In this document: piece after piece, positions 32,674 to 62,751 of the stretch
Layout: every line of letters begins with the position of its first letter
How positions within the stretch are numbered: the first letter of the stretch is position 1
Source of the DNA: Bryobacterales bacterium
GTDB taxonomy: Bacteria; Acidobacteriota; Terriglobia; Bryobacterales; UBA6623
Direction of reading: 5' to 3'
Length of the DNA: 64,000 bases
NCBI GenBank assembly: GCA_963422375.2
Contig: OY729428.2
Coordinates: 2,752,001 to 2,816,000 of the forward strand
Made by a program: the position numbers and the translations under genes
The notes under the pieces: model-generated
Told to the model about the DNA's origin: nothing
Database searches by the model: none
Seen by the model: only the letters and a program-made list of their open reading frames with translations

Positions 32674-33046
32674 GGGTCGGTCGTCCGGGCAGTCGCGGCG
32701 CCCGCGGGCGCCGAGGAAAGTCCGGTCTCCGCAGGGCAGCGTGCCGGCTAACGGCCGGGCGGCGCATCCGCGAGGAGGCGCCGACGGAAAGTGCCACAGA
32801 AAAGATACCGCCCCGCCACGCGGGGCAAGGGTGAAATGGTGCGGTAAGAGCGCACCGCGTGCCGGGCAACCGGGACGGCAGGGCAAACCCCACGCGGAGC
32901 AAGACCAAATAGGGGGCGAGGCGGCGGCCCGCCGCGACCGAGCCCCGGGTAGGTCGCTAGAGGCGCTTGGCAACAGGCGTTCGAGACGAATGGCTGCCGC
33001 CCGCCCGCGGGCGGGGACAGAAACCGGCTTACAGGGCGGCCGGCCC
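32674..33046 (+). ncRNA. rnpB: RNase P RNA, bacterial class A
   Basis: GAGGAAAGTCC (32713), GGAAAGTGCCACAGAAA, GGGTGAAA..GTGCGGTAAGAGCGCAC, GGCAAACCCC..GGAGCAAG and ACAGAAACCGGCTTAC (33017). The 5' GGGTCGGTCGTCC pairs with the 3' GGGCGGCCGGCCC (P1). Confidence 0.97.
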
Positions 33047-33072
33047 TGCCGCCCGGGCCGCGAGCCCGGCCC

Positions 33073-35395: not shown

Positions 35396-36304
35396 CTACC
35401 GAGCGGCCTCGAGGTCATACCGCTCCAGGATCCTTCTCATGTACCGTCTGACCCGCGGACCGTGGTCCGGATCCGCCACCGCGAAGGCGATGAATGTCTC
35501 GAAGTAGCTCGGCATGTTGCCGATGTCGAAGCGCTTCTCGTCCGCGCGAAGCCGCAGGCCGCGCACTGCGCCGCCCTCTTCCGCGATCCGCCGGATGGCG
35601 TCGGTGATCTGCACCTCGTCGCGGCGGTCGGGCCCCACGCGCCGAATCATGTCGAAGATCCTCGGCGAGAAGACGTAGCGCCCGGCCACCGCCAGGCGGC
35701 TCGGAGCTTCCGCGGCCGACGGTTTCTCGACCAAGGTGCGGATCGGGAAGGACTCGCCCGCGCCGCCCGGCTCGACGATCCCGTAAAAGCGCACGTGCTC
35801 CGGAGGCACTTCCTCCACCGCGACCACGACGTCGGCTCGGTGCCGGATGAACTCGTCCGCCATGCGCCGGCAAGCGACCGAGTCCTCCCCGAGGCCGATG
35901 ATCGAATCGCCCAAGGCGACGATGAAGGGCTCGCGGCCCGCGAAGGACTCGCCGTGCAGGATGGCATCGCCGAGACCGCGCTGGACGCTCTGCCGCGTGT
36001 AGAGCACGTTGAGGCCCAGCTTCTCGAAGTCCAGCGCGAGCTGGAGGTCCACCCTGCCCGCAATCCGCAGCGACTCCATGAGCGCGGGATCGGGGTCGAA
36101 GTGATTCTCGATCGCCGCCTTGCCGCGCCCTGTCACGAACAGCAGATTCCGGACGCCGCTGCGGGCTAGCTCCTCCGTGACGTATTGCACGATCGGCTTG
36201 CGCGCGACCGGCAGCATTTCCTTGGGCTGCGACTTGGTCGCCGGCAGCAGCCGCGTCCCCAAGCCGGCGACAGGGACCACCGCATTCGGGATCGGACAAT
36301 CCAT
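35396..36304 (-). CDS. galU: UTP--glucose-1-phosphate uridylyltransferase
   Basis: AVVPVAGLGTRLLPATKSQPKEMLP, RQ...GLGDA, VEKP, EVQITDA and RFDIG. Confidence 0.92.
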   Translation of the reverse strand: MDCPIPNAVVPVAGLGTRLLPATKSQPKEMLPVARKPIVQYVTEELARSGVRNLLFVTGRGKAAIENHFDPDPALMESLRIAGRVDLQLALDFEKLGLNVLYTRQSVQRGLGDAILHGESFAGREPFIVALGDSIIGLGEDSVACRRMADEFIRHRADVVVAVEEVPPEHVRFYGIVEPGGAGESFPIRTLVEKPSAAEAPSRLAVAGRYVFSPRIFDMIRRVGPDRRDEVQITDAIRRIAEEGGAVRGLRLRADEKRFDIGNMPSYFETFIAFAVADPDHGPRVRRYMRRILERYDLEAAR

Positions 36305-36329
36305 CAATGCCACGGAATGCAGGAAATCG

Positions 36330-37160
36330 CTAGCTGGGCGCTCCGCCAAACTGGAAATCGTCCAATGTCAAGCTGCGATTCCAGACGTCGATGAACAGGG
36401 TGCGCATGGCGCTGCCCAAGCTCCGGTGCTCGAAGACCAGGGCGGTAATCTTCTGATGGCTGACGACGGGATCGTCCAAGGAAATCATCCCGCTGTGGCT
36501 GTCGAATAGCGCCAGCTTCAAGGGGACGCTCCAGCTCAGCCTCACCTCGGCTCCGGCTTCCTCCAAGAGTTCCAGCTTGTCCTTCCCGTCGGCCCCCCCG
36601 ACTTCGCCGGCGTCGAACATCAGCTTGCAGGACGTGCCCTTGTCCGCGAGGCTCCTGACGATCGGCTCGTGGACCGGGTCCACGGCGTAGGGAGGGCGCG
36701 CGAATTCCAAGTACTCGTTCGATGTCTGGAGCAGCATGTGCCGGTACTCCTCCACGATCTGCCTCGTGTCGGCGATGATGCGCAGGTAATCGAGCGGGCT
36801 GTGCCCGTTGGTCCCGTCCTGATACACGGCCGCCAGGTCGTCGCTGAGCTTCGCTGCCAGCTGCTGGCGGTCCTCCCATTCGCGCAGGAACCGCTCCCGC
36901 CGTCGACTCAGATAGCCTTCCAGCGCGAGCCGCGGCTCGACGGCCGAGAATTGCTTCGTCTTTCCGTGGACAACCCGCACGAAGCCCTTGTCGACCAAGC
37001 CGTTGAGCACGTCGTAGATCTTGGCCCGCGGGATATTCGCCCGGCCCGCGACATCGAGAGCCTTGAAATGGACGTGGCCAATGAGAACCATGTAGGCCTT
37101 CGATTCGTAAGCATTGAGGCCGATGTCGTGGAGCCGTCTCCTGTGAAGTTCCAGTTCCAC
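36330..37160 (-). CDS. TrmB-family transcriptional regulator
   Basis: IGLNAYESKAY..L....A..IPRAKIYDVL..L..KGFV wHTH; C-terminal PLD-like effector domain (LKLALFD). Confidence 0.88.
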   Translation of the reverse strand: MELELHRRRLHDIGLNAYESKAYMVLIGHVHFKALDVAGRANIPRAKIYDVLNGLVDKGFVRVVHGKTKQFSAVEPRLALEGYLSRRRERFLREWEDRQQLAAKLSDDLAAVYQDGTNGHSPLDYLRIIADTRQIVEEYRHMLLQTSNEYLEFARPPYAVDPVHEPIVRSLADKGTSCKLMFDAGEVGGADGKDKLELLEEAGAEVRLSWSVPLKLALFDSHSGMISLDDPVVSHQKITALVFEHRSLGSAMRTLFIDVWNRSLTLDDFQFGGAPS

Positions 37161-37339
37161 CTCCTTGGATTATACCGAGCGACGCGCGCCGGAAGCCGAA
37201 TTCGACCTAGCCGGGTAGACAGAGCGCCAGCGAGCAGGCGTTCCCTGCTCGGTGCCGGCACTGGCAGCGGCGCAGATGGAGGGGCTGGCCCGGATCGACT
37301 CGAACGAGGCCTGGCGGGCCGCTGGCCCGCCCGCGCGCC

Positions 37340-38878
37340 TCAGGCGCGCCCGTTCCCCAGAAAGTTCGCTCCGAGCTCGACGTCCCCCAGCGTCACGCGA
37401 GCGCCCGGACCGATGCCCCGGGCCGAGCCGGGCTCCAGCTTGATCCCGTCCACGCTCGTGCCGTTGAGGCTGCGCAGGTCCTCGACCATCAGCTCGCCGT
37501 CCCGCAGGAAGAGGCGGGCGTGGCGACGCGAGACGCTGTCGACGGCGATGACGTAGTCGGCGTCGGCGGAGGAGCGCCCGATCACCTGCCCGTCCTGCGA
37601 GCGGGCTACAGCGGTGCCGTTGATCTTGAGGCGAACCTCCTGCCCGTCGGGCCCCGTCCCGGAGAGCATCACGTCCGAGAAAGTGGCACTGCTCCGCTCC
37701 AGATCCTCCCGCGCGCTGGCCAGCCTCTGCTCGGACTCGGACCGCTCGCGTCGACGAGCCCTGCGCTGCGAGACGCCGAATGCGATGCCGGCCAGCAGCA
37801 GCACTCCGAGGCCAATGCCAACGATTTGCTGAACGCGCACGACCTCTCCCTGCGCGCGAAGCATTCCCTCGTACCGCTCGCTCTCGGCGCGCCGCTCCTC
37901 CTCGAGCGAGAGCAGCTGCTCTTCGAGCGACGCCTTGGTCCGCGTGAGTCCGTCGATCTCCTTCTGCCTCGCCGCAACTTCCTGACGACGGCTCTCTAAG
38001 GAGTCCTCCAGCCCGCTCTGCCGGGTCTCCAAAGTCTGGATCTCGGCCTGGATCCGCGCCTTTTCCTCCTCGGCCTGCTTCTTGTCATCGCTCGTAGCCT
38101 TTTCCAATTCATTGAGCCGCGCTTCCAAGGCGGTCTTCTCTTCGGTCACCTTCTCCTTTTCGGCCTCGATCGCGGTGCGCTTCTTATGGATCTCGGTTTT
38201 TGCCGCCTCCGCCTCGGCCAGCCTAGAGTTCGCCTCCTCCAGCTCGCCCGCCAGCTGCTCCCCGAGCGGCAGGCAGGCCTCCGTCGCGGCCTTGTACTCG
38301 ACGCCGTTACTGGCTAGGAACTGCTTCACAGCGGGCAGGGAGCCGCTAGACCACAGATTCTTCTCCTGCTGCCTGAAAAAGCCGATTCCGACAAGCTCGT
38401 CGCAGTTGTTCAGCACCGGCGCGGACACTTGGTCCGGTCCGTCGACCAAGGCGTACCGATACGCGGTCCTTCCGTCCGGGAGCTCTTCGACCGACTGCAG
38501 CGCGCCTTCCCGGTGGCTACCGCCGGGACTCGGCACGCGCGCGCTGCGGCCCGCCGTGGGCGCGTCCAAGGCGACGGCCGCGGGCTCGGAAGCGAACCCG
38601 GAGACGGCTAGCAAGGCGAGATCCTGGCGAGCGTCGCCGACCGTCACGGTAGCAATCAGCTGCGCCGACGTATCCGGATCGGTCACCAAGCACTGGTCGC
38701 TGCGTCCGACCAGCCCGTAGCTGGCCAGCAGGACGCCTTCCGCCACGGAAATCGCGATGCCGCTCTCGCCCGCGTTGCGGCCCTTGTTGACCGCGACCGA
38801 ATACACCGTCGCGCCTGCGGCGCCGACGGCCGCCGACAGCGTCGCTGCCAGCGCGACAACATGTCGCATGCCTGTCAT
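37340..38878 (-). CDS. Signal peptide - degenerate trypsin-like domain - coiled coil - TM - FHA domain protein
   Basis: GGGAGG RBS; DLALL and APVLNNCDELVGI trypsin-like elements; long E/K/L heptad region; IVGIGLGVLLLAGIAFGV TM; VIGRS..DSVSRRHA..VEDLRSLNGT FHA. Confidence 0.82.
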   Translation of the reverse strand: MTGMRHVVALAATLSAAVGAAGATVYSVAVNKGRNAGESGIAISVAEGVLLASYGLVGRSDQCLVTDPDTSAQLIATVTVGDARQDLALLAVSGFASEPAAVALDAPTAGRSARVPSPGGSHREGALQSVEELPDGRTAYRYALVDGPDQVSAPVLNNCDELVGIGFFRQQEKNLWSSGSLPAVKQFLASNGVEYKAATEACLPLGEQLAGELEEANSRLAEAEAAKTEIHKKRTAIEAEKEKVTEEKTALEARLNELEKATSDDKKQAEEEKARIQAEIQTLETRQSGLEDSLESRRQEVAARQKEIDGLTRTKASLEEQLLSLEEERRAESERYEGMLRAQGEVVRVQQIVGIGLGVLLLAGIAFGVSQRRARRRERSESEQRLASAREDLERSSATFSDVMLSGTGPDGQEVRLKINGTAVARSQDGQVIGRSSADADYVIAVDSVSRRHARLFLRDGELMVEDLRSLNGTSVDGIKLEPGSARGIGPGARVTLGDVELGANFLGNGRA

Positions 38879-39022
38879 CACGTCAGTCCTCCCTGTCTCC
38901 ATTTTCCGCAGCGCGGGGTTCCCGGCCGCCGGGGCGCGATCGCCGGGCACGCCGGCCTGCCCGGGCCGAATCGACACCGGCCGACGCCGGTGGATGCGGT
39001 CCACCCATACCGGACAGCCTCG

Positions 39023-39799
39023 CTAGCGGCCCGGGGCGACCGCCGGTTCCGGGCCGGTCACCCGGAACGCTATCACCGTAGCGTTGTCCTGGCGGGGGCG
39101 GTCCCGTGCCGCGACCTCCCGCAGAATGCAATCGACCAAGCTTTCGGAGGATGCAGACGCGTCGGCCGAGGCGAGCGCGGCCAGATCCTCGTCCGAGCAG
39201 GTCTCGACGCCGTCGCTTCCTAGGAGCAGGATGTCCCCGCAAGCGAGTTCGAGCGGCACGTGCGGCGCGTCGACCAGCTCGATCTCCCTGCCCAGCACCG
39301 CTTCTGCCAGCTCGGACCGGGAGGCCGCGAGGAGCGCCGCGCCTAGCGATGCGCCTGGCGGCGCGGCGCGCTCGTCCAGCACGCTGCCGACCGAGTGATT
39401 CTTGTTCAGCCGACGCAGCGCGCCTTCCCGGAAGAGCCAGAGCGGGCTGTCCCCCACGCTGACCCAGAGCAGCTCGCCTCGGTTGATCGCGACCGCCACG
39501 ACCGTCGTTCCCATACCGACGCAATCGGGATCGGACTGGATCCGGTCGAAGAGAGCGTAGTTCGCTTCCTGCAGAGCCCCCAAGAGGCGGTCTCTCTGCG
39601 ACAGGCTCGCCCGCTCCAAGTAGGTCCGGCGGAAGCTGTCCACGACCGTGGAACTGGCGACGTCGCCGCTGGCGTGCCCGCCCATCCCGTCCGCCAGGAT
39701 CAAGAGATGGCAGTCGTTCGGCCAAGTCAGGCAGGCGACGCGATCCTGCTGCCGCTCCCGGCGGCCTTGCATTTGTCCCCACGCGATGTCCGCAGGCAC
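39023..39799 (-). CDS. PP2C-family Ser/Thr protein phosphatase
   Basis: GRRERQQD, LADGMGGH..G..AS, GMGTT, VGDSP, LNKNHS, GSDGV and QDNATV. Confidence 0.93.
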   Translation of the reverse strand: MPADIAWGQMQGRRERQQDRVACLTWPNDCHLLILADGMGGHASGDVASSTVVDSFRRTYLERASLSQRDRLLGALQEANYALFDRIQSDPDCVGMGTTVVAVAINRGELLWVSVGDSPLWLFREGALRRLNKNHSVGSVLDERAAPPGASLGAALLAASRSELAEAVLGREIELVDAPHVPLELACGDILLLGSDGVETCSDEDLAALASADASASSESLVDCILREVAARDRPRQDNATVIAFRVTGPEPAVAPGR

Positions 39800-39801
39800 G
39801 G

Positions 39802-40485
39802 CTAGGCGCTCGGCCCCCGCTCGGCCTCGCTCCACATGAATTCGTCGCCGCACAGGGCCACGAAACGCAGCGTGGTCGCGCCCATCGACAGGGAGCAACC
39901 GTTTTCCAGAATCGTGGGCTGGAGCACGGGCTCACCGTTCAGGTACACCAGGTTCACGCCCGATCCCACCTGGAGGTAGTACTTGTTGCCCTTGGGATCG
40001 TACGTAACGCGGGCATGATCCGTACGCGAGATCTCCCTGTCGCCGAAGTCCAGTTGCACTCTTGATTCGTCGCCCCGCCCGATCTTGTTCAAGCCGTTTC
40101 CCAGGGGGACGAAGCAGCCCTGGCCGGGGCCTTCCACGACCACCAGCCACCCTACGACAGGGTCGTCAATGCCCCGCCGACGGGAGGGAGGGAGGGGCTC
40201 GTCGTCTCGGGCGGGTCGCGGGCCTCCCGCGATCCGCGTCCGGGGCTCCTCCGCTTTCGCAGGGGCGACCCGAGGGGCGCTGTCCGCGGTCGGGCGGGTC
40301 ATCGGCCTTGTCGTGGGCTCGTCGTCGTAGAACAGCGGACGCCGCGCGGAGCGCCCCGGGTCGCTCCCGCCGACACCGGAGCCTCTCGGGCCCGGCCCGT
40401 CGCCGAAAATGGACCTCTTCTCGCGCCTGAAGGGGGTGGAAGGCACGTCGACCGGCACCCCGTCCGGGCCGAACTTCTTGGCCAT
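39802..40485 (-). CDS. FHA domain protein with disordered Thr-containing N-terminus
   Basis: GGAAAGGAG RBS before MAKKFG; PVVGWLVVVEGPG.G, NKIGRG, DREISRTDHA and NLVYLNG. Confidence 0.88.
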   Translation of the reverse strand: MAKKFGPDGVPVDVPSTPFRREKRSIFGDGPGPRGSGVGGSDPGRSARRPLFYDDEPTTRPMTRPTADSAPRVAPAKAEEPRTRIAGGPRPARDDEPLPPSRRRGIDDPVVGWLVVVEGPGQGCFVPLGNGLNKIGRGDESRVQLDFGDREISRTDHARVTYDPKGNKYYLQVGSGVNLVYLNGEPVLQPTILENGCSLSMGATTLRFVALCGDEFMWSEAERGPSA

Positions 40486-40499
40486 CGCTCGCTCCTTTC

Positions 40500-41360
40500 C
40501 TAAGGCTCCTCGTAGAGCCGGTTGACTAGGTTGTCGAGGCAGTACTGCCCGGCGCTGTTGAGCGCTGTCTCTTCCTTGCCCTGCGCGATGTGGAGCATGA
40601 ACACCAGTAGCGCGGACATCAGCAGCGCGACGAGCGTCGTGCTGAAGGCTATCCCGAGCTTGCTCGTCATCGCGCCGAACCAAGCCTGAACGGCCGGGGC
40701 GGAGTCGAGATCCGGCAACTCGCCCGCCGCGGACAGAGCCAGCGCGATGCCGACGACTGTCCCGATGAAGCCCAGCGTCGGGATCAGCCATACCAGGTAG
40801 CGCAGCATGTTGTACTTGAGATCGATCTCGTGCTGCATGAGATCGAGGCTGGAATTGAGCAGCCCGTTCGCCTGGTCGACCGAATTGCTGATCTGGAACT
40901 GCTGGACGGTCCGAATGATCAGCCGCTGAAGGCGGTAGAAACGGGCGTCGCTGGCGCTCGTCGCATTCCGGTAGATCGGCACGAGATCCCTCCCGCGCAG
41001 CATGGTGCTGTCGTCTTCCGGGAGCAAGTCCTTGCGCAGCTGGGCGGACTCGCCAATCCCCCGGTGGAAACGGACCCAGAGCTCGCCGAGACCGAAGAAG
41101 AACAGAAGCCACATGAGATTCTGAATGGTTAGCGGATAGCGGCTGCTGGCGCGGTCCAGGAGGAGCGCGGCCATGTCGATCTCGCCCGATCCGGGCGTCG
41201 GCATCCCCAAGGCGAGCGTCAGCAGACTGATCGCCACAACGCCCGCAACCACGGCGGCAGCCGCGACAATCAGGCGATACCGCTGCTCCTCTCCTTCCAG
41301 AGGATTCAATGGTTCCCAAGCTCCTTGCCGGACGGCGCTACGAACTCTCCGGTGCGCCAT
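40500..41360 (-). CDS. MotA/TolQ/ExbB proton channel family protein
   Basis: LIPTLGFIGTVVGI and LGIAFSTTLVALL signature helices; two N-terminal hydrophobic segments. Confidence 0.88.
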   Translation of the reverse strand: MAHRRVRSAVRQGAWEPLNPLEGEEQRYRLIVAAAAVVAGVVAISLLTLALGMPTPGSGEIDMAALLLDRASSRYPLTIQNLMWLLFFFGLGELWVRFHRGIGESAQLRKDLLPEDDSTMLRGRDLVPIYRNATSASDARFYRLQRLIIRTVQQFQISNSVDQANGLLNSSLDLMQHEIDLKYNMLRYLVWLIPTLGFIGTVVGIALALSAAGELPDLDSAPAVQAWFGAMTSKLGIAFSTTLVALLMSALLVFMLHIAQGKEETALNSAGQYCLDNLVNRLYEEP

Positions 41361-41674
41361 GCCTCCTCCGGAGGCTGGTCGCGGGCTGGCGCGCCCGCAG
41401 GCAACCGGAAGCCGTTCCCGACAAGCAGACTGGCCAAGTCGGTCTCGCAGTCGCCGAACCGCACGGCAGCATTCAGATCCACGAAGCCCGCCCGGTGCTC
41501 AATCCACGATCCGTCACGCGATACCATCGTGCCGCGCCGCGATCGCCTGTCCGTGAGGTAGCAGCGGCCGTCCTCCGTCAGAGTCAGTTCCGCATGCAGC
41601 CTGCTGACCGTAGCGTCGGCAACGCGCAGGTCGGCGTTCCGGCTGCGACCGACCATGTACGTTCGAAAGCTCAT
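41306..41674 (-). CDS. Small FHA domain protein
   Basis: VGRS..ADL...TVSRLHAEL...YLTDRRSRRGT; C-terminal RTGE motif. Confidence 0.88.
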   Translation of the reverse strand: MSFRTYMVGRSRNADLRVADATVSRLHAELTLTEDGRCYLTDRRSRRGTMVSRDGSWIEHRAGFVDLNAAVRFGDCETDLASLLVGNGFRLPAGAPARDQPPEEAWRTGEFVAPSGKELGNH

Positions 41675-41966
41675 TCACCGAACCCCGTTCCGTTCCGCCC
41701 GGTGCAAGCCGCCGGACCCCGCCGCTGCGAACGCCGGGCAACGGCGCGGCATCGCGCCGTCGGCCCGCGGACGCGACTCGACTTGAATCGCGGCATGGCC
41801 ACAATGTAGCAGTCTCGACCGGCGTTACCGCAGTGGGCGCATGGCACGGAGCACGTCTCCAAGCCTTGGGATAGACGCGCACCTGGCCCAGCCGGTTTCC
41901 CCGGCCGGGCGGCAGGGCGGGCCGGGCACCGAACCGGCGGAGCGCGCGGCGCGACGGCACCGCTAG

Positions 41967-43923
41967 CCCGCATTATTCACGAATGCGGCGCAGGCCCATG
42001 GTCCGGTTTCCGGACCCTCGATGGCCGCCCAATCTGCTTCCGAAACGCCTGCGGGCGGGGAATGCGGGGCTTGCGGGGCGTCTCGCGAGCGGCCTGCGGG
42101 CCGCGGACACCTCCTCGGCGGCACCCGCCCGGAGGGCAGGCACGGTTTCCCCCGGCGGCGCCCGGCGCCTGCCGACACTCTCCGGATTGACCCGGCCCGG
42201 CGTCATATCGGCACGGCCCCCAAGCCCCGCGCCACCACCACCCGGGCGTCCCGGAACGGTGCCGTCCGCGGCACTCGCAGCACGATCCGCTTCGCCGTGG
42301 CCGCGACCCGCGCTCCCGGCTTCGGCAGGCCGAGGCGCAACCCGTCCGCCCGGCGCTTCCGCAGCGGCGTGTCCCGCGCCTGCCAGCGCAGTTCCTGCAT
42401 GATCACGCAGGCCGCCGCCGCGAGCGGCACGCGGAACCGGTTCGCCGCGAAGCTCGAGCAGCTGGCGCGGTCCATCCGCATCCCGTGCTCGAGCTCCTTG
42501 ACGCGGTTCTCCACGTCCCCGCGCAGGCAGTGGATCCGCTCGCAGAGGCGCTGCGGGCTGCCGCCCGCGTTGGTCACCGCGTAGCGCGGGTTCCACTGCG
42601 GGGCGCGCCCGGGAAACTCGCTCGCGTCCGCCTTGACGATCACCCGCCGCGCCCGCGACCGGCGGCCCGCCCGCTAGACGAACTGCCCGTGCAGCGGGCC
42701 CGGGTTCTTGCCCGCGTCCTCCGCGCCCGGCCGGCCCCCCTGCGTGCCGGCTCCCAGCCGCGCGTACTTCGCCCGCAACTGCTCCAGCCGGGACGGCGGG
42801 TCCCCCGCGGCCGCCGCTGCCCCGCCGGGGTCCGTGCCCGGGGTGCCGCCGGGCGTGCGCCGCGCCTCGACGGCCGCCCGCAACGGGGCCGCGCGCCGCT
42901 CCGGCACCGCGTTCTTCTGCAGGCACGCCACGTACTCCAGGCCCTCGCGCTCGCCATAGGCCGGCAGCTCGTCCCCTTGGAAGCCCGCGTCCAGGCGCAG
43001 GCGCAGCGTCGCCCGCGCGAAGAATTCCCGCAGCAGCGGCAGCAAGCGCTCCAGCAGCGGCAGCAAGCCCTCCGCGGCCGCCGCCGTGCCCGAGCGCAGC
43101 AGCGCCGCCACGAGATGCCGCTCGCGCTCGTCGTCGAAGCGCACCGCGCCCACCAGCGGCAAGTAGCAATGCGTGTCGCAGGAGCCGTTGAACAGCGCCA
43201 GCTGCCGGCCCCCGTGCGTCGGCTCGCAGGCCGGGTCGAAGTCCAGCTCGGCGATCCTCGTCTCGGGGCGCCGGTCGTGCCGGCGCCGCACGACGCAGCG
43301 GGCCGGCACCGCGGACAGCGCGCTCGGCGCGTCCGCGGTGCCGGCGTTCTCGAAGCGCGACAGGGTGGGCCGGGACGGCAGGTCGCGACCCTGCCAGGGG
43401 TCGCGCCCGAGCGGCAGCTTGAACACGGGGTCGCCGCCGAGGCGCCCGGCGTCGTGGCAGTCCTCCTAGCCGCGGGCGAGGCCGTGGATGCGCTGGCGGA
43501 GCATGTCCGCGAGGGAGTGGAGCACCTTGGAGTCCTTGGAGGGCTGGCGCCGGTCGCGCAGGCAGTCGGCGAACGCCGCGGTGAGGCCGGGAGCGCGGTC
43601 GGCGGCCTCGACCGGGACAGCGCCGCCGTCGGAGCTGCTGCGCTCGTGATCGCAGCGGACGGCGACGGGGCGACGGCGCGGATTGCGGAACGGAACGCCT
43701 TGGGAGCCTGCGGATGCGACCATGCATTCATTATAACCTACCGGATGAAAACCATTTCAGCGTATAAACTTGGATCTCGATCGGACCGGGCCGGGGCTGC
43801 CGCCGGGGATCGCAGGGCACTCCTAGGAGTGAGGGAGTGAGGATCGCGCTGGACCGGGGGCCCTCACGGCCCGGGCGGAGGGACCGGACTATGGCCCTCC
43901 GGGCTACTCATGAATTATCCGGG
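41967..43923 (-). mobile_element. IS1380-family insertion sequence (1957 bp) with terminal IRs and CTAG target duplication
   Basis: Left end CCCGCATTATTCACGAA; right end reverse complement CCCGGATAATTCATGAG. CTAG flanks both ends (41963-41966 and 43924-43927). Confidence 0.88.
42203..43723 (-). pseudogene. IS1380 transposase (DDE_Tnp_1_4-like), interrupted by two in-frame TAG codons
   Basis: SSDGG, HSLADMLRQRI, G*ED, PTLSRFEN, LDFD, RLDAGF, RGDVENRVKE and FAANRFR. The three ORF pieces share one frame; TAG at 43466-43468 and 42674-42676. Confidence 0.88.
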
Positions 43924-44087
43924 CTAGCAGTCGACTGCAAGATCGGCTTGGGGCGGGTCGGATTCCTCGCCCGCCAGCGGGGGGAATCGGAGTCCCTCGC
44001 GGTAGCGGGAGGAACCGCCCGATCGCATCAAGGTCGTACTATGTTGTTTCGTCGAGCGTCCGTTCGGCCGCTCGCTGCGCTCGTCGG

Positions 44088-45086
44088 ATGGAAAGAGACG
44101 CCGTGGGCGGGGACAGCGCAGAGTCCGAACGCGCTGGCACTTGCCGAGGCCAGGCCGACACCGAGAAATTGTCAGGCGACATGCACGCATCGCTAATCGC
44201 GGCATCGAACGCCCCGTCCCGCTTCCGTTGGCGGGTCCGGGCAGCGAGGTTGCTGCAGCGGCAGTCGCGCGAGAGGCGCGCAGCCCTGCAGGCGAGCCCT
44301 CCCGCAAGGGGACGGGAAGCCGAGTCGCCTGCGATTCGGCAGTTCCGGGCTCGGGTAACGCAGAGTCCGCCGACGCGGCTCGAGACGAGCGGCGACCGGT
44401 CCTCGAGAGAGCGCACCGAGCCCGCGGGCAGCGATCCGAGAAGTTGCTCCGGATGGTTGGCGGGCCAGCCGGAGAGACACCCGGAGCGCATCGCTGCCGG
44501 CACGCAGCGACCCGAGCGCCGCCGTTCCGGACAGATGCTTGGCTCTGCCTGGGCCTGGCTTGCGCTGTGGGACTGGAACCAGGTCTCGTGGTGGATTCTG
44601 GCCGCGCTCGTGCTGGGCGGTGTCGCTTGCCTGTTAGCCCTGCTGCGCCCCGGGGAGCGACGAGGCCGGCCCTCAGAAGTGCAGGGCGCGCCTCGGCAAC
44701 CCGGCTGGCCGCAGTCCGAAGAGCCCGACGGCCTCGATGCCGGCAGATCGGTGCCCCACCGAATGGGATCGAGATCATCGGTCGGCGCCTTGGTGGCCGA
44801 AGCGCGCTCCAATGCGATCCCATTGGACCCGGCCGTGCTCTCCTCCGCCGAGGGACTAGTTATCGGGCGGGCACGGTCCGTGTGCCACGTTGAGATCTGG
44901 GACGCCCAAGTGTCGCGCCGTCACGCTAGGCTGCGGCTGGTCAACGGCTCTGTCATGATCGAAGATCTCAATTCGACGGCAGGCACGCGAGTCGCCGGAC
45001 GTCGACTCGAGCCGTTCCGACCGGTCGCCCTCCAGCCGGGAGAGCCTGTGCAAATCGGGGACTCCCTGTTTCGCTTCGAAGCTTGA
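44088..45086 (+). CDS. Membrane-anchored FHA domain protein (N-terminus possibly degenerate)
   Basis: WWILAALVLGGVACLLALL TM; LVIGRA..VSRRHA..IEDLNSTAGT FHA resembling the 37340 FHA. Start uncertain. Confidence 0.7.
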   Translation: MERDAVGGDSAESERAGTCRGQADTEKLSGDMHASLIAASNAPSRFRWRVRAARLLQRQSRERRAALQASPPARGREAESPAIRQFRARVTQSPPTRLETSGDRSSRERTEPAGSDPRSCSGWLAGQPERHPERIAAGTQRPERRRSGQMLGSAWAWLALWDWNQVSWWILAALVLGGVACLLALLRPGERRGRPSEVQGAPRQPGWPQSEEPDGLDAGRSVPHRMGSRSSVGALVAEARSNAIPLDPAVLSSAEGLVIGRARSVCHVEIWDAQVSRRHARLRLVNGSVMIEDLNSTAGTRVAGRRLEPFRPVALQPGEPVQIGDSLFRFEA

Positions 45087-45314
45087 CAGCCCGACGGCAA
45101 CCCGGGCGTGCTGGGTACGCAACCGCCGTGCTCGCGCGCAATCACTCCACAGCGCACCGCGAGAGACGAGGGACACGCTCTCATTGGGCGCGACGGCCGG
45201 GCGATGGCCGCCGCACGGGCCGCTACCGGAATCTCTGCGACGAAGCAATCAGCGGGAGCGCCGAATTGCCAGACATTCAGCGCTCCGCACGCGACAACCT
45301 GCGTCAGACCTTGC

Positions 45315-45350
45315 TTCCACCGGGGGATTGGCGAGTCCGCCCAGCTGCGC
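45315..45350 (+). repeat. 36-bp exact inverted copy of motA-like coding sequence 41034-41069
   Basis: TTCCACCGGGGGATTGGCGAGTCCGCCCAGCTGCGC equals the reverse complement of 41034-41069. Confidence 0.93.
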
Positions 45351-45355
45351 CAAGG

Positions 45356-46006
45356 CTACCGGCGAGGCTCCAACGCCACCTCCACCTGTGGAGTGTCCCG
45401 GCGCGAGGCTAGGAGCCTTTGCCCGAAGTCGTCCAGCTTGGCGCTGAGATCCTTGAACCCGTCCGTCATCCGCTCGTCCATGCGGTCCATCCGGGCTGTA
45501 TGGCGCTCGTCCATCCGGTCCATGCTGTCCTCGACGCGATCAATCCGCTCCCCGAAGTGACGAACGTTGTCCTCTAGGCTGCCGACGCCCCGCTCTAGGC
45601 TGCCGACACGGACTTCGACGGCCTCGATGCGGGAGCCTAGGTTCGCTTCCGTCCGATCGATGCGAGCGGTCACCCGCTCTTCGGACGACTCAATTGACGA
45701 GTCGATTCGCTCGACCAGCCGCGCCTCTGACTTCTCGATCTGGGCGAGCAGCTCCGCGAACTGGTCGTTGCGGAGGCTCGAGAACCCGACGTAGAGACCT
45801 CCGGCGGCGACCAGCAGCATGAGCACTTCCCTTCCGCTAGGGGTCATGTGCCACCACTTCCCGCCGTGCGCCGGGCTCGCTACCGAGCCGTCCCTCGCCA
45901 TGCTATCACGTTGCATCATGCGCTGTACCTCCTCAAGTCGCACTGTCTGAGTGTTCGGGCTGTCGAACCCTCCTCCCGATCTGGACGCATGCATAGGATG
46001 CACCAT
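45356..46006 (-). CDS. TM-anchored coiled-coil protein with heptad repeats (DUF1640/CCDC90-like)
   Basis: VLMLLVAAGGLYVGF TM followed by RID/RIE/RMD heptads; 15-bp repeat with 21-bp period at 45572 and 45593. Start uncertain. Confidence 0.6.
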   Translation of the reverse strand: MVHPMHASRSGGGFDSPNTQTVRLEEVQRMMQRDSMARDGSVASPAHGGKWWHMTPSGREVLMLLVAAGGLYVGFSSLRNDQFAELLAQIEKSEARLVERIDSSIESSEERVTARIDRTEANLGSRIEAVEVRVGSLERGVGSLEDNVRHFGERIDRVEDSMDRMDERHTARMDRMDERMTDGFKDLSAKLDDFGQRLLASRRDTPQVEVALEPRR

Positions 46007-46697
46007 CCTATTCGTTTGATATTCTTGTCCTACACGTTTTCAGTCGAACTGTCAAGGATGAACAAGAAGGATCTGTCCCAAGCATCGACTCCGTGCTAGC
46101 GGCCGACCCGCCGGGCCAAGCTCCAGTCGGGACGCTTGCTGTCCGCTCGGTACGACCCGCTGGAGCGCCGCAACCATCCGATGAGCCTTTCGCGCGCGGT
46201 GGCGGCGGCTTGGAACGGGGCGGCGACAACGGCTCAAATCCGGGGCCGGATCGAAGGAAAACGAGCTGTGGCGCCCGACCGCCTAGCGCGGGCGCGGAGC
46301 CATCCGCAATCGCGGCCCCCGCAGCCTGCGGGCCTGCCCGGTCGATCGTGTCATCAACGGCGAGCCAGCAGTCGCTACCGGGGGCGAGCGGCCGCGAGCG
46401 ATGCCGGGCCTCTCGGGACGCCGTTCGCGTCGACTCCGACGGGTTGGACGCGGTCACCCGAATCAAGTGCCGTGATAGCAAGGTTCGCGCCCTCCGACGG
46501 CCCTGCCGGATGCTCCCCTTGTCTAGACTGCCTGCTAGCTCTTGCTTGGCTCCTCAGCCGGACCGAGACCGAGCCTTCCGTCCGGCATTCGGTTCCCGCC
46601 AAGGACCGGAGGCCACGGTGGGAATCGGTCGACTGAGTCCGTCGCCAAGCGCTTGCGGCTGGGCGTGCCGAGGCGACTAGCGGTTGCGGAATCCCGA

Positions 46698-46721
46698 CGG
46701 AAACCCTCGGAAACCCTCGGA
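46698..46721 (+). repeat. 10-bp tandem direct repeat (CGGAAACCCT x2 + CGGA) upstream of the kinase gene
   Basis: Read directly; lies just upstream of TAAACT (46729-46734). Confidence 0.8.
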
Positions 46722-46743
46722 GTTTGGCTAAACTGGCCGCAGA

Positions 46744-48819
46744 GTGCCAGTCCGGTCCGAGTTTCCGAGCGGCCCGGAGAATTCCGATGGCAGCGCCGAG
46801 CGACGCGACGCCCTGAAGCCGGGCACCCGTCTCGAGGGCTACGAGGTCGAAGAGACCATAGGCTCGGGCGGATTCGGGATCGTCTACCGAGCGCGCCACG
46901 AAGCGCTCGCCAGCGTGGTCGCCATCAAGGAGTATATCCCGGCCGAGCTCGCGGTTCGCGAGGGTGACGCGGTGCGCCCGCGCAGCGAGGACTGCACGGG
47001 GCCCTTTGCGGAAGGAATGCGCCGGTTCGAGGACGAGGCTAAGAGACTTGACGAACTCAAGCGCCACCCCGCAATCGTCGGATGCCGGGGGTTCTTCAAG
47101 TCCAACGGCACGGCCTACCTGGTAATGGATTACGTGGACGGCAAGCCCCTGTCGCTACTGCTGCGGGACCGGGAAAAGGCGGGCCAGCCGTTTACGTACG
47201 AGGACTTGCTTGCGGTGATGGAGCCGCTGCTGGATGGCGTGGCGTGGCTGCACGGGGCCGACATGCTGCACCGAGACATCAAGCCCTCCAACATCCTGAT
47301 CCGGCGATCGGACGAGCAGCCGGTACTCATCGACTTCGGCGCCGCCAAGCAAGGCGTGGCCGAGCGGACCAACTCCAGCGCCCCTTTCACCGAGGGATAC
47401 GCAGCGCCGGAGCAGATGGCCGACGGGTGCCTCAGGCCGTGGACCGACATCTACGGGCTGGGGGCCACGATGTGGCGCATGGTCGCCGGCGCGAATGTCG
47501 GCCCCGACGAGGAGCGACCGCGACCGGCGAGCGCCGACAAGAGGCAGTACGCAGTTTTTCGCGGCCAGAGCGACCCGCTCCGCTCGGCTCGCTGGCTCGG
47601 CGCAGGGAAGTTCCCCCCGCACGTCCTGAACGCCATCGACCGATGCATGACCCTCGACGAGTCACGGCGCTGGAGCAACTGTTCCGCCCTCGGGAGGGAA
47701 CTGGCCGGACGCGGAGTGCCGGTCGTCGAGCGCGAACGTCAAGCGCCCCGACCGCCCCCCGTGCGTCCCGACGCGGCATCGGCGGCTAGGGGGCAGATAC
47801 TCGGCAGCGTGCTGAGCATCCTAGCGGCCGGCATCGCTGCCGGGGCCCTGCTGCTGGCGCTCCTTGACCTGACCATCGACCGAGAGCCCGGCGCGTCCGC
47901 TCCCCCGCCCGCATCCTTCCGGATCGAGGCGATCCCTCCCGATGCGAGCGTGGAGTTCGAGGGCGCGGACACTCCGTATCGCGCGGGCATGACACTCGAG
48001 GCCGGCACATACCAAGTCCGGGTGAGCGCGCCCGGGTACGAGCCCGACTCACGCGTGATCGCGCACGGCGAGGGCCCGACCAGCGAGAGAATCGAGCTCA
48101 AGAAAAGGGCCCTTGGCGCGCCCCGCCGGCCATCCCCGCAACAGCCCGCGAAGGGGCCGAAGACCTCCGCCGGGACGGAACGGGAGCCGAACAAGCGGAT
48201 CTACTCGTCCGCCGAGGTGACGCGGGTTCCGCGCGTGCGGCACCAAGTCGATGCCGACTACTCGGATATTGCACGCCGGGCCAGGCACCAAGGCACGGTT
48301 GTCCTGGCTATCGAAATCTGGCAAGACGGCTCCCCGCACAATGTTCGAGTGACTCGGAGCTTGGGCCTGGGCCTCGACGAGAAGGCGATCGAGGCCGTCC
48401 AAGCCTGGCGCTTCGATCCCGCCCTAAAGGACGGCGTCGCGGTGCGCTGCACTGCAGAAGTCGAGGTGAACTTCAGGCTCCCGCCCGCCGGCCCGGCAGG
48501 CGGGCAAGGCGGCGCCCAGACATCCGCGCCGGGACATCCACCGGTCCTCGGGGCCACGCCGCCCGAGCTGCTATCCAAGGTCGAGCCCGCGTACACCGAC
48601 CAGGCGAAGACAGCGCAACTTCAAGGGACGGTGATCCTGGAATTCGAGGTCTGGGAGGACGGGGAGGCGCACAGCATCCGCGTCGCGGAGGGCCTGGGCA
48701 TGGGGCTGGACGAGAACGCGATCGAAGCAGTCGGCCAGTGGAAGTTCGCGCCGGCTACAAAGGACGGCGTACCGGTGAGGGTGGCAGCCAAGGCGATGGT
48801 CAGCTTCCGCCTGCTTTAG
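46744..48819 (+). CDS. Hanks-type Ser/Thr kinase - TM - PEGA-like - two TonB C-terminal domains
   Basis: IGSGGFGIVY, VAIKEY, HRDIKPSN, DFG, YAAPEQ, TDIYGLG; TM; two copies of Y..A....QGTV.L...W.DG.......LG.GLDE.AIEAV..W.F.PA.KDG..V. Confidence 0.9.
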   Translation: MPVRSEFPSGPENSDGSAERRDALKPGTRLEGYEVEETIGSGGFGIVYRARHEALASVVAIKEYIPAELAVREGDAVRPRSEDCTGPFAEGMRRFEDEAKRLDELKRHPAIVGCRGFFKSNGTAYLVMDYVDGKPLSLLLRDREKAGQPFTYEDLLAVMEPLLDGVAWLHGADMLHRDIKPSNILIRRSDEQPVLIDFGAAKQGVAERTNSSAPFTEGYAAPEQMADGCLRPWTDIYGLGATMWRMVAGANVGPDEERPRPASADKRQYAVFRGQSDPLRSARWLGAGKFPPHVLNAIDRCMTLDESRRWSNCSALGRELAGRGVPVVERERQAPRPPPVRPDAASAARGQILGSVLSILAAGIAAGALLLALLDLTIDREPGASAPPPASFRIEAIPPDASVEFEGADTPYRAGMTLEAGTYQVRVSAPGYEPDSRVIAHGEGPTSERIELKKRALGAPRRPSPQQPAKGPKTSAGTEREPNKRIYSSAEVTRVPRVRHQVDADYSDIARRARHQGTVVLAIEIWQDGSPHNVRVTRSLGLGLDEKAIEAVQAWRFDPALKDGVAVRCTAEVEVNFRLPPAGPAGGQGGAQTSAPGHPPVLGATPPELLSKVEPAYTDQAKTAQLQGTVILEFEVWEDGEAHSIRVAEGLGMGLDENAIEAVGQWKFAPATKDGVPVRVAAKAMVSFRLL

Positions 48820-48886: not shown

Positions 48887-49945
48887 TCACTCCGAGGGCT
48901 GGCTGCCCACGCTCGGCGGGAAGTACCCGCGCCGGTGGTAAACCTCCACGTCCGCGCCGGCCAGTCCGAGCTCCACTTGGATCATGCGGAACTGCCGGTC
49001 CGCGAACGGCCGGCTGGGAACGTAGCCTAGGATGTACTGGCTCTGCACGTTGCCGGCCACGTCGATTATGGCCTCGTACAGCGCCTGCAGCTGCGCCGCG
49101 GCGTAGCCGCCCGTACCGACCTCGTACTGGTAGTTTCCGGCGTCCTGGGGCTTGGAGAGATACCCCGCCACGTCCTTGTGAACCTTCTGCATCGGCCGCA
49201 CGACGCGCCCGCCGGTCTCCCGGGCCATCCGGACCAGGTTGGATTCCTCCTCCTGGTGATAGCCCCAGCCAACGGTGCTCACCGCGTAGATCGTGACCTG
49301 ATGCATCTGCGCCGCGTGGACCACTTCGTCGATCGAGCGCTTGCTGGCGTTGTCGTGGCCGTCGCCGATCACGATGATCGCCTTGCGCGGCTCGCTCGCG
49401 CCCTGGTACGGGATCGACACCAGCTTCTCCGTGCAGGCCTGGTAGATCGCGTCGAACATCGCGCTGCCGCCTCCATGCTTGAGGCTCTCCATGCTCTCGG
49501 TAAGGATGACCGGATCGTCGGTGAAGTCCACCAGCTCGTCCACTTCGGTGTGGTAGCCGAGCAGAAAGCCCTTGTTCCTGCCTCCCTCGGGCACGAGCAT
49601 CCACGCTAGATCCCCGATGGAGGACTGGTAGGTCTTGTAGTAGAGGCGCGCCGTGTTGCTGAGATCGATGATGAAGCCGGCATACAGAGGCGGCTTCTTG
49701 TCCTCCTCCACGCTTCGCGTGAAGTAGCGGATCTCTACGAGCTGCCCGTCCTCCCACACGGAGAAGTCGGACTTGGTCAGGTCCACGATGAAGCGGCCCT
49801 CCGAATCGGTGACGGTCACCGGCAGGTTGACGACGTTGACCTCGACGCGGATGGTGCCGTCCTGCTCGGATGCGACCTCCTGAGCCGGCGCCGCGACCGA
49901 GGCGCACAGCAGCGCGACCATGCCGAGACCCGGTCCACCCCTCAT
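48887..49945 (-). CDS. VWA domain protein (acidobacterial VWFA-related)
   Basis: TIRVEVNVVNLPVTVTD..GRFI.DL...DF...EDG, DLSNT, IGDGHDNAS, ETGGR, SQYILGY.P and RRGYF. Confidence 0.9.
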   Translation of the reverse strand: MRGGPGLGMVALLCASVAAPAQEVASEQDGTIRVEVNVVNLPVTVTDSEGRFIVDLTKSDFSVWEDGQLVEIRYFTRSVEEDKKPPLYAGFIIDLSNTARLYYKTYQSSIGDLAWMLVPEGGRNKGFLLGYHTEVDELVDFTDDPVILTESMESLKHGGGSAMFDAIYQACTEKLVSIPYQGASEPRKAIIVIGDGHDNASKRSIDEVVHAAQMHQVTIYAVSTVGWGYHQEEESNLVRMARETGGRVVRPMQKVHKDVAGYLSKPQDAGNYQYEVGTGGYAAAQLQALYEAIIDVAGNVQSQYILGYVPSRPFADRQFRMIQVELGLAGADVEVYHRRGYFPPSVGSQPSE

Positions 49946-60405: not shown

Positions 60406-60570
60406 GCCGACAGCTAGGCGGAGCAAGTGAGGCGGAGGCAAGCTTCCGTCCGGACGCAGTTCGCGAGGTGAGCAGCGAGTAGGAGCCGGGCTGTGGGGGT
60501 GCTCGCCGACCGCAACTCGCTTCCACGCCTAGGAATGTGTCGGTCGCGTGCCGGATCGGTAGGAGAGGCC

Positions 60571-62751
60571 ATGGCAGCGGTCATTGACGACGATTCGCGT
60601 ACCGCACTACCGGCGGGCACGGTGCTCCATGGCGCGTATGAAGTGCGGTCCCAGATCGATCACGGCGGATTCGGAATCGTCTACAGCGCGCTGCACCGGG
60701 AACTGAGACTGCCGGTAGCAATTAAGGAGTACTTCCCCGTCGATCTGTCCGTGCGCGAGGAGGGCACGGTGCATCCTCGGAGCAGGGCCCGCGGGGACGA
60801 CTTCAACGATGGGCTTGATCGCTTCCTAGGTGAGGCGCAAAGTCTGACGAAGTTCAGAGACCTTCCCAACATCGTCTCTTGCAGCGACTTCTTCCGCGAG
60901 AATGGCACGGCCTACATCGTGATGGATTTCGAGGACGGCATGTCTCTCCGGGATTTGCTCGAGATGAGGGAAGACCAAGGCCGACCGTTCGGCGAGGACG
61001 ACCTGCTAGCTGTGATCATGCCGGTGTTGCGAGGGCTGAAGAAGGTCCACGACGCGGGAGTGCTGCACCGGGACATCAAACCGAGCAACATCCTGATTCG
61101 TAAGGAGGCGAATCGCGAGGAGGACCGGCCGGTACTGATCGACTTCGGCGCGGCTAAGCAGAAGACGGCGGGGATGTCGCGGTCTTACGCGCCTTACACG
61201 AACGGCTACGCGGCGATTGAGCAGGTGGCAGGCGGGGCGCTGGGGCCTTGGACGGACATCTACGCGGTCGGGGCGGTGATGTGGCGGATGGTGGCCGGAG
61301 CCAGGGCGGACTCCGTCTCGAGGGTCCCGGCGAAGGTGGAGGCGCGGCTGGCTGCATTCTTGCGGGGTGACCCGGACCCGCTGCCGTCAGCGCAAGAGTT
61401 GGGGGACGGAAGGTACTCGAAGGGGCTTCTGAAAACAATCGACCGCTGCCTAGATCTGCGCGAGGAGAACCGAGTGCAGGATTGCGACGAGCTAGCGCGA
61501 CTTCTCCAGCCAGAGGAGCCTGCCGGCGAGGATCTCGCGCCTGTGACCGCCAAGCCGTCGCGGTCGGTCACGCGTCAGGCGTGGATCATGGCATTGGTGG
61601 CTGTCGGAGTGGCTGGAGTCACGCTGGCCTTGGCACTCGGAGTGGGAATAGGCGGCGGTCCGGGGCCGGACCCGACCCTGCCGCCTGGTGGTGACCAGAG
61701 CCAAGAGGTAGAGGCGGCGGAGGGTGACGGCGTGACGGGCCAGATCGGAACAGACAGCGGCTCGGGGGCAGACAATGGAGAGAGGGTCTCGGCAGCTACC
61801 GGGGCCCTTACGGGAAGGGAGACCGTTCGCCCAGCAGAGTCATTCGGAGAACAGAATCCGCCCGTCGCAGGCCTCCATCCTCCACGACCCAAAGGAACGA
61901 AGCCCGGAGCCGTGGCGGAGCGAGGCCCCGGGACGGATGCCGGAACCAGCGATCCGCCGATTATTACTGGCCCGGGACTTGGCAGGGAGCGGAGTGTCGG
62001 CAGCGACGACTCCCCAGCGGACGCTTCGGCGGAGTCGCTTGCGGCTTCCGAAGGAGTGCGGCGGGAACTGACGAACAGCATCGGCATGGAATTCGTTCTG
62101 GTCCCGGAAGGCAGTTTCCGTATGGGCTCCCCGCAATCCGAGGCAGATCGAGAAGAAGACGAAGGCCCGGTGCATGAAGTCACGATCAGCCAGCCCTTCT
62201 ACTTGGGGAAGCACGAAGTGACGCAAGGGCAATGGAAGGCATTGATGAGCGGAAACCCGTCTGCATTTGACAGATGCGGGGACAGCTGCCCGGTTGAGAA
62301 TGTCTCGTGGAATGATGCTAGCGAGTTCATCCGAGAGTTGAACAAGAGGGAAGGAGGCGAGCGATACCGCCTGCCAACGGAAGCGGAATGGGAGTACGCA
62401 GCCCGGGCTGGCGCAGACGCTCCGCCCTTTCTGGAACCGCTCAAGATCACAGCTTGGTATGACGGGACCAGCGAAATGAAAACGCATCCTGTGGGCCACA
62501 AGAATGCCAATGCCTTCGGTCTGCACGACATGCTAGGCAACGTGTGGGAGTGGGTGTCGGACCGGTACGGAGATTATTCAAACCGTGCCGCAACCGATCC
62601 TCAAGGTCCCGGCACGGGCTCGCAGCGGGCCTATCGGGGCGGCGGATGGTATCTCGGCCCAGAGTACTGCCGGCCGGCGAGCCGGCGAGGGAGCAGCCCC
62701 GGCGCTCGTCGCGGAAACCTAGGCTTCCGAGTGCTGAGGACTGCGCAGTAG
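60571..62751 (+). CDS. Hanks-type Ser/Thr kinase - TM - linker - SUMF1/FGE-sulfatase (C-lectin fold) domain
   Basis: AGGAGA RBS; HGGFGIVY, VAIKEY, HRDIKPSN, DFG; TM; NSIGMEFV, HEVTQGQW, YRLPTEAEWEYAARAG, GLHDMLGNVWEW, RGGGW and GFRV. Confidence 0.92.
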   Translation: MAAVIDDDSRTALPAGTVLHGAYEVRSQIDHGGFGIVYSALHRELRLPVAIKEYFPVDLSVREEGTVHPRSRARGDDFNDGLDRFLGEAQSLTKFRDLPNIVSCSDFFRENGTAYIVMDFEDGMSLRDLLEMREDQGRPFGEDDLLAVIMPVLRGLKKVHDAGVLHRDIKPSNILIRKEANREEDRPVLIDFGAAKQKTAGMSRSYAPYTNGYAAIEQVAGGALGPWTDIYAVGAVMWRMVAGARADSVSRVPAKVEARLAAFLRGDPDPLPSAQELGDGRYSKGLLKTIDRCLDLREENRVQDCDELARLLQPEEPAGEDLAPVTAKPSRSVTRQAWIMALVAVGVAGVTLALALGVGIGGGPGPDPTLPPGGDQSQEVEAAEGDGVTGQIGTDSGSGADNGERVSAATGALTGRETVRPAESFGEQNPPVAGLHPPRPKGTKPGAVAERGPGTDAGTSDPPIITGPGLGRERSVGSDDSPADASAESLAASEGVRRELTNSIGMEFVLVPEGSFRMGSPQSEADREEDEGPVHEVTISQPFYLGKHEVTQGQWKALMSGNPSAFDRCGDSCPVENVSWNDASEFIRELNKREGGERYRLPTEAEWEYAARAGADAPPFLEPLKITAWYDGTSEMKTHPVGHKNANAFGLHDMLGNVWEWVSDRYGDYSNRAATDPQGPGTGSQRAYRGGGWYLGPEYCRPASRRGSSPGARRGNLGFRVLRTAQ

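Follow-up and report, generated by a model that had tools for sequence, protein, structure and literature searches.

A conserved gene cluster predicted to encode a phosphorylation-switched, ion-driven motor, split in two in a Bryobacterales genome

A 64,000-nucleotide stretch of the genome of a Bryobacterales bacterium (GenBank assembly GCA_963422375.2, contig OY729428.2, positions 2,752,001 to 2,816,000 of the forward strand; hereafter the window) encodes, at 37340..48819, a channel subunit of the TolQ/ExbB/MotA type together with forkhead-associated (FHA) domain proteins, a PP2C phosphatase and a receptor Ser/Thr kinase. In our interpretation, the region is the channel-bearing half of a gene cluster conserved in bacteria, the products of which would form an ion-driven inner-membrane motor that is switched by phosphorylation and whose output is the clustering of proteases; this overall reading has, in our judgement, an even chance of being correct. 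The initial annotation had treated the region as one module, which is incomplete in the window: the likely second motor subunit, a tethered protein carrying the von Willebrand factor A (vWA) domain (TPH-vWA), is encoded 712 kb away. Co-inheritance and conserved residues make it very probable that the two proteins pair as a channel5-vWA2 motor.

On the minus strand, five genes are tightly packed in the order FHA1, channel, FHA2, PP2C and pseudo-trypsin-FHA. FHA1 (41306..41674; Pfam FHA, E 5e-11) is a small soluble FHA protein, and its stop overlaps the probable TTG start (41309) of the 286-amino-acid channel subunit (40500..41360; Pfam MotA_ExbB, PF01618, E 3e-8, above the cut-off). FHA2 (39802..40485; Pfam FHA, E 7e-9) joins a disordered N-terminal tail to a C-terminal FHA domain, and is followed by a soluble PP2C/PPM phosphatase (39023..39898, probable start near 39799; Pfam PP2C, E 2e-10; NCBIfam Stp1, E 3e-33) in which the Asp motifs for metal binding are present. 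The last gene (37340..39004, probable start near 38881; Pfam FHA, E 1e-13) encodes a membrane-tethered protein with a signal-like N-terminus, a trypsin-like head, a coiled-coil stalk, a transmembrane (TM) helix at residues 394-412 identified by TM scan, and a cytoplasmic FHA domain with canonical G-R, S-x-x-H and N-G motifs. The head had been called a dead trypsin, which is borne out by weak Trypsin_2 matches in two homologues and by the missing His and Ser motifs in the window protein; in a regex tally of the family, these motifs occur in 19 and 20 of 91 members, respectively. On the plus strand lie a TM-FHA gene (44088..45086, likely start 44535; Pfam FHA, E 4e-16; TM scan) and a gene for a receptor Ser/Thr kinase with PEGA and two TonB_C domains (46744..48819; Pfam and TM scan), in which the kinase domain is intact and the TM helix (residues 356-374) contains no His. 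Thus, all of the open reading frames (ORFs) and domains of the initial annotation were recovered by Pfam and TM scans, and the two gene groups do point in opposite directions as described, but they are not directly adjacent, being separated by an IS1380-type element and a TM-coiled-coil ORF.

To define the cluster, we took the 80 top-ranking loci among 471 confirmed places in genome_contigs, spanning six phyla, and clustered their ORFs. Twelve loci with less than 5 kb downstream or less than 3 kb upstream were dropped, leaving 68 full-flank loci in which neighbors were counted within 10 kb of the channel gene. The vWA, FHA2 and kinase genes were each present in 67 of the 68 (74, 77 and 75 of all 80), trypsin-FHA in 65 (73 of 80) and PP2C in 61 (70 of 80), with FHA1 (40), a PP2C-TM-propeptide fusion (33) and an M4-peptidase-TM-FHA protein (29) less frequent. 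The sole full-flank locus without a vWA gene (L022) is a reduced second copy, and the full copy (L051) is in the same record. Most often the genes are arranged as FHA1, channel, FHA2, PP2C, trypsin-FHA, vWA, kinase. The vWA gene directly follows the channel gene, in the manner of exbB-exbD, in at least 10 loci and likewise on a Rhizobium plasmid. The nearest named related loci are from Bryobacterales genomes. Plasmids yielded three records, and a search of a phage collection gave no match. In a comparison set of 41 genomes including this one (G000), the channel, vWA and FHA2 genes occur in the same 8 genomes, and none of the three was found in the other 33. Co-occurrence of the cluster genes is far beyond chance, and the proposal that writer, eraser, readers and channel form one module is upheld by their joint inheritance across six phyla. 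PADLOC and NCBIfam returned no system-level match and no named system for the cluster.

The channel belongs to a conserved subfamily, with 1845 matches among 8000 candidates and the best 120 at 55-77% identity. Four threonines (Thr195, Thr201, Thr241 and Thr242) are invariant in all 80 homologues, and would line the lumen of the pore. With an AlphaFold2 model of the protein (pLDDT 86.5), Foldseek placed TolQ/ExbB in the top rows at probability 1.00, with E-values (4e-3 to 1e-2) above 0.001, and VIA-align aligned it with ExbB over 207 residues (Z 11.4, root-mean-square deviation (rmsd) 3.9), a score under Z 13, the level below which caution applies for helical bundles. The top natural chains in VIA-align were ExbB, ZorA and TolQ at Z 10-11. 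When solved structures were searched with the channel profile, no sequence matches were obtained. No exbD, tolR or motB family was recurrent among the clustered ORFs of the 80 loci, of which part were covered by the Pfam scan, and the three ExbD genes of this genome adjoin other ExbB genes.

Two further ExbD-less MotA/ExbB-like genes occur in this genome (L003, G000:C2:3430173-3430820; L005, C1:667543-668539), each followed by a small gene for an Asp-helix partner that Pfam ExbD does not recognize; one of them precedes a long gene resembling cobaltochelatase by eye. A distant channel homologue (31% identity) on an Anabaena cylindrica plasmid (L100:8782-11361) is without the kinase cluster and is flanked by a type III-B CRISPR cmr operon on one side and a viperin gene on the other.

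The single vWA copy of the genome (G000:C2:3505509-3506675) is intact, and in its product a short, basic N-terminus leads into a TM anchor helix that bears an Asp, followed by a coiled-coil stalk and then the vWA head. All 39 aligned proteins share the anchor-helix Asp35 (motif in 75 of 77 ORFs); the vWA fold of the head was confirmed, with DxS/TxS motifs detected by regex in 55 of 79. As in TPH-vWA proteins, the anchor helix lacks the His of the SHLS motif. A nearer vWA gene in the window (48887-49945, Acidobacterial TIGR03436) was rejected as the partner: no anchor helix was found in it and no homologue in the 80 loci, and it matches the vWA family profile at E 0.09.

In the distant unit, the order is vWA, PP2C-TM-propeptide, M4-TM-FHA, with a second kinase bearing two TonB_C domains divergent from the vWA gene. 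Channel and vWA genes are 2-15 kb apart in all seven carrier relatives versus 712 kb here. The same two modules are 15 kb apart in one of these relatives (G015), and in three loci (L006, L013 and L014) a kinase gene lies between trypsin-FHA and vWA; thus breaks at this point are recurrent, and the vWA unit probably had its own promoter before it moved. One locus (L086:9634-13468) encodes a PP2C-TM-FTP propeptide fusion and then a thermolysin-type protease with a TM-FHA tail, so that propeptide and protease are carried by separate membrane proteins.

The kinases of the cluster form a subfamily (E up to 1e-60) present in all 8 carrier genomes at 2-35 copies, and as a single copy in one of the 33 others. 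This genome has seven: two with TonB_C pairs, four with FGE-like heads and one that is broken. A second window member, with an FGE-sulfatase-like head, lies at 60493..62751 on the plus strand. In a hand-picked sample out of the 140 locus kinases, some of whose ORFs are clipped at locus ends, FGE-sulfatase-like heads were commonest, alongside Sel1, WD40, ankyrin, MORN, RDD and TonB_C domains and a beta-helix with a peptidoglycan-binding domain. One relative (G017) carries 35 copies, including arrays with many FGE-like heads (L096-L098; G017:C5:1793001-1918000) that look like an expanding receptor repertoire. A subfamily kinase has as its neighbor, just outside the window, a protein (L092:1-1446) that combines a caspase domain (Peptidase_C14) with an FGE-like portion.

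A candidate phosphorylation code is suggested by FHA2. Its tail in the window contains repeated acidic-x-x-Thr motifs (EPTT, EPRT), and although these tails are otherwise variable, the 60 that could be parsed out of 78 are rich in EPPT (24), DAPT (18), EPKT (13) and EPRT (12). At position -3 of Thr, Glu is enriched 4.7-fold and Asp 2.3-fold; a motif regex, itself derived from the same data, gave 129 matches versus 9 in shuffles. The acidic -3 enrichment was absent in 81 kinase juxtamembrane linkers. FHA2 and trypsin-FHA mostly retain the canonical Arg, Ser, His and Asn of the FHA domain, and FHA1 and M4-FHA are mostly without the Asn (in FHA1, that of the N-G motif). FHA2 is a likely kinase substrate and adaptor. 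The cytoplasmic loop of the channel also has an acidic-x-x-Thr-like candidate phospho-site, at Thr119.

We envisage that five channel subunits would enclose two vWA anchor helices, as in ExbB5-ExbD2, and that ion flow would turn or pull a periplasmic coiled-coil stalk ending in a MIDAS (metal-binding) vWA head; in this genome, the two motor subunits would come from separate transcription units. Input would come from single-pass receptor kinases with interchangeable periplasmic heads, which would phosphorylate acidic-x-x-Thr motifs, above all those of the FHA2 tail, with PP2C resetting them. This wiring of kinases, FHA2 tail and PP2C is probable. At the motor, the phosphorylated tail would then gather pseudo-trypsin, M4 protease and TM-FHA by their FHA tails, and force and local proteolysis would act in the periplasm where the signal arose, the vWA head acting on a periplasmic ligand; this output step is a guess, to which we give somewhat less than an even chance. 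The system could serve to survey the envelope and to respond, following the logic of PpkA/PppA/Fha1, but its output would be a motor and proteases in place of a T6SS (type VI secretion system).

Several observations weigh against this reading. The links between the parts are drawn from gene content, domains, folds, residues and co-inheritance, and both the 80 loci and the 41 genomes come from a single database, as overlapping sets related by kinship. The vWA anchor helix does not match the ExbD profile significantly (E 0.019 and 0.15), and Thr119 of the channel is Thr in only 40 and Ser in 16 of 80 homologues (56 together). Because M4-FHA, like PP2C-propeptide and FHA1, is absent in many loci, M4 proteolysis cannot be a universal output. 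The lengths of the vWA and trypsin-FHA stalks do not covary, which gives no support to the idea that their heads meet: a molecular ruler, with the vWA stalk (range 19-180 residues) matched to that of trypsin-FHA, was rejected at rho -0.04 over 53 loci (contrasts, r -0.01), a fuller parse that superseded a first strict one (rho 0.50 on 18 loci). Finally, in concatenated trees the halves of this genome fall into different clades (approximately unbiased (AU) test, p 0.001 and 0.049), with test groups that were named post hoc, after the trees were seen, and a one-piece locus (L007) that also shifts between trees; thus, the subunits in this genome may be of mixed origin. Single-gene trees gave a two-copy origin of the halves weak support.

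The motor could instead be the sensor: the vWA head would grip a ligand in the wall or outer membrane, and the kinases and FHA proteins would receive a signal of load or of a lost ion gradient, much as ZorAB may signal to its effectors. We consider this unlikely. The nearest folds do include ZorA, at Z 10.3-10.6 and rmsd 3.4-4.4 and on a par with ExbB and TolQ, and phospho-proteins are the only conserved cytoplasmic effectors in the loci. However, the kinases have their own diverse periplasmic heads, in up to 35 copies versus one motor, which fits many inputs and one output, and the PADLOC match to ZorA2 is partial (E 8e-4) for a channel that has no ZorA-like tail. Zorya itself has in common with the cluster a repurposed 5:2 motor of similar fold, possibly used in surveillance; it differs in the long ZorA tail, in its partner (ZorB has an OmpA-like domain, and the partner here is a vWA protein) and in its nuclease/helicase effectors, which are not seen in the loci.

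Another possibility is a kinase-regulated machine for adhesion or surface contact, used in attachment or slow surface movement. The Agl-Glt motor of Myxococcus includes the TolQ-like AglR, the FHA-TM-TonB_C protein GltG and the vWA adhesin CglB, a domain vocabulary (channel, vWA, FHA, TonB_C) that the present cluster has in common with it, and no flagellin was found in this genome. Gliding is also raised in PMC12204202 for its first vWA family. Yet no outer-membrane barrel or lipoprotein family was recurrent in the 80 loci, the GltG model scored 18 against a cut-off of 650, and the shorter of the vWA stalks, which vary from 19 to 180 residues, could hardly span to the outer membrane. Such a machine is therefore quite improbable.

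The separation of the two halves raises the question of decay, that is, of an operon broken by rearrangement and insertion sequence (IS) activity whose halves no longer cooperate. The vWA gene, which follows trypsin-FHA in relatives, is missing from the window operon. Contigs from two other samples (runs X3 and X4) compared with the window bridge 35500-40830 with 0 differences; thus the vWA-less junction is not a mis-assembly. The IS1380-type element (41963..43927, minus strand; Pfam DDE_Tnp_1_4), flanked by CTAG at both ends, is multi-copy, with a depth spike and 23 matches of at least 1 kb in the genome at 87-96% identity, and the window copy is degenerate, being broken by stops and frameshifts; it is outside the system and splits the divergent promoter region. 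A near-exact inverted copy of about 40 nucleotides from within the channel gene (45315..45357, plus strand; counterpart at 41027-41069) runs up to the coiled-coil ORF's stop codon and is a putative rearrangement scar. This duplication is real in the other samples, in which the X3 and X4 contigs break at both copies, and was rejected as a conserved element because none was seen in the 80 related loci. The exceptional distance between the halves, the IS in the promoter region, the duplicated channel fragment, the broken kinase and the fairly long terminal branches would all fit a relic. Against this, none of the eight core reading frames is interrupted and their catalytic and pore residues persist, six of the subfamily kinases remain intact, the sequence is identical in other samples, and identity to relatives equals that among relatives for both halves (channel 63-72%, vWA 46-60%), which makes decay distinctly improbable.

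The initial annotation had coupled the channel to the TonB domains of the kinase, so that the channel would energize them as ExbB does TonB and contact with an outer-membrane transporter would lead to phosphorylation. Each half in this genome does adjoin a kinase with two TonB_C domains. However, TonB_C occurs on only 1 of the 140 locus kinases, a count that includes ORFs clipped at locus ends, and the S-x3-H motif, through which TonB and TolA dock on their motors, was found in none of 94 kinase TM helices. Four of the seven paralogues here bear FGE-like heads instead, and tandem TonB_C also tips M56/BlaR1-type receptors (PF05569), which indicates that it serves as a plug-in sensor. A swappable TonB_C head on a TM helix without S-x3-H does not make a Ton system, and the proposal is largely refuted and very improbable. 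The kinase is thus part of the system, with the TonB domains as one sensor option and not as an energized TonB. In comparison with the Ton and Tol systems (ExbB-ExbD-TonB and TolQ-TolR-TolA), the channel fold, Thr ring and Asp helix are held in common; unlike them, the cluster lacks both a periplasmic domain of the ExbD/TolR kind and a transducer with the His, and places TonB_C on kinases.

An orphan threonine-phosphorylation locus acting on a T6SS elsewhere in the genome, suggested by the kinase/PP2C/FHA triad and by FGE-like heads that recall TagR (PMC13713981), is refuted within the reach of our search and has next to no probability left, since VipB and Hcp were not found in this 96%-complete genome, VipB was not found in any of five carrier relatives, and the TagH model reached 28 bits against 120.

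The motor pair itself has already been predicted in print: an AF3-based prediction places TPH-vWA in a TolQ-like pentamer in place of TolR/ExbD (PMC12204202; Mol Biol Evol 2025, msaf138; Fig. 4c-d). Common to those TolQ-like/TPH-vWA pairs, which involve the second vWA family of that paper, and to the present cluster are a channel without exbD/tolR/motB, an Asp-bearing tethered vWA protein without SHLS and conserved pore Thr. The vWA gene beside the channel gene, also a feature of TPH-vWA motors, is seen in 67 of 68 full-flank loci and not in this genome. The vWA genes of that account are mostly heterologous pairs, whereas here they are mostly single, with two in 5 of 74 loci and one in this genome. 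In contrast to that account, the motor genes are here connected to a set of kinases, FHA proteins and PP2C as well as to tethered proteases, and the subunits of this genome are far apart. The main text of PMC12204202 contains neither "kinase" nor "phosphatase", and its sole match to "fha" is FhaC, though its figures may show neighbor genes. For the T6SS, PMC13713981 describes an FGE-domain protein that activates PpkA, with Fha1 phosphorylated after membrane damage; this PpkA/PppA/Fha1-TagQ/TagR pathway has in common with the cluster a single-pass kinase, PP2C, FHA readers, FGE-like input and an envelope response. Unlike in that pathway, the FGE-like domain is here fused to many varied kinases, and the linked machine is a channel with vWA and proteases. 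In Deinococcus, DRA0331-0334 likewise combine vWA, kinase, FHA and PP2C in a single operon; in the part of the preprint consulted, a MotA-like channel is unmentioned and the context is DNA-damage signaling (bioRxiv 10.64898/2026.01.23.701218). No TerY-P model was among the PADLOC matches listed for 12 proteins (for kinases, the best 25 each). The TerY-P triad consists of vWA, PP2C and kinase. We found no description of the kinase-wired cluster in the open-access literature. What appears to be new is the coupling of the motor to kinases, FHA proteins and proteases. This window further contributes a 712-kb split in which co-occurrence is preserved, a repertoire of kinases across the genome that is tied to the motor, the Thr motif and a lesser role for TonB_C.

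Other features lie beside the system. The FHA domain of TM-FHA is nearest to the tails of M4-peptidase-TM-FHA proteins (about 52-53% identity), and the protein is possibly a truncated paralogue of these; the in-frame third-position GC content (GC3) of its gene is 0.72-0.80. The TM-coiled-coil ORF (45356..46006, minus strand) is single-copy, with one TM helix and heptad repeats; its apolipoprotein-like Pfam matches are below the cut-off, and a homologue was not found in the related loci. In a divergent clade (L056, L059, L068-L077, L080, L081, L084, L085), two tandem trypsin-like genes occur, often with the His motif in one and the Ser motif in the other by regex, and some keep both. The 32741-33070 region, between sulfatase-like and ferrochelatase-like genes, appears RNase P RNA-like by eye from ORF translations.

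Ion-driven 5:2 motors power flagella, TonB-dependent uptake, Tol and Zorya, and we know of none that is switched by Ser/Thr phosphorylation. The cluster is a concrete candidate for such a motor in six phyla, with cultured carriers among Alteromonas, Aliiglaciecola, Pseudidiomarina and Alishewanella as well as on a Rhizobium plasmid, and with named residues (vWA Asp35, the four pore Thr and the Thr of the FHA2 tail). The split genome retains channel and vWA together even without linkage, and 'orphan' channels in single windows may thus have far-off partners. In its boldest form, which we hold to be rather unlikely, this would be a stand-alone surveillance machine: a diversifying, genome-wide repertoire of kinases, in up to 35 copies with exchangeable heads, would write an acidic-x-x-Thr/FHA code that converges on a single rotary 5:2 motor, and this motor would grip through an integrin-like vWA head and mechanically activate or aim periplasmic tethered proteases. 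If true, the MotA/ExbB/TolQ family would thereby gain its first phosphorylation-gated motor, one robust enough for assembly in trans from genes separated by 712 kb.

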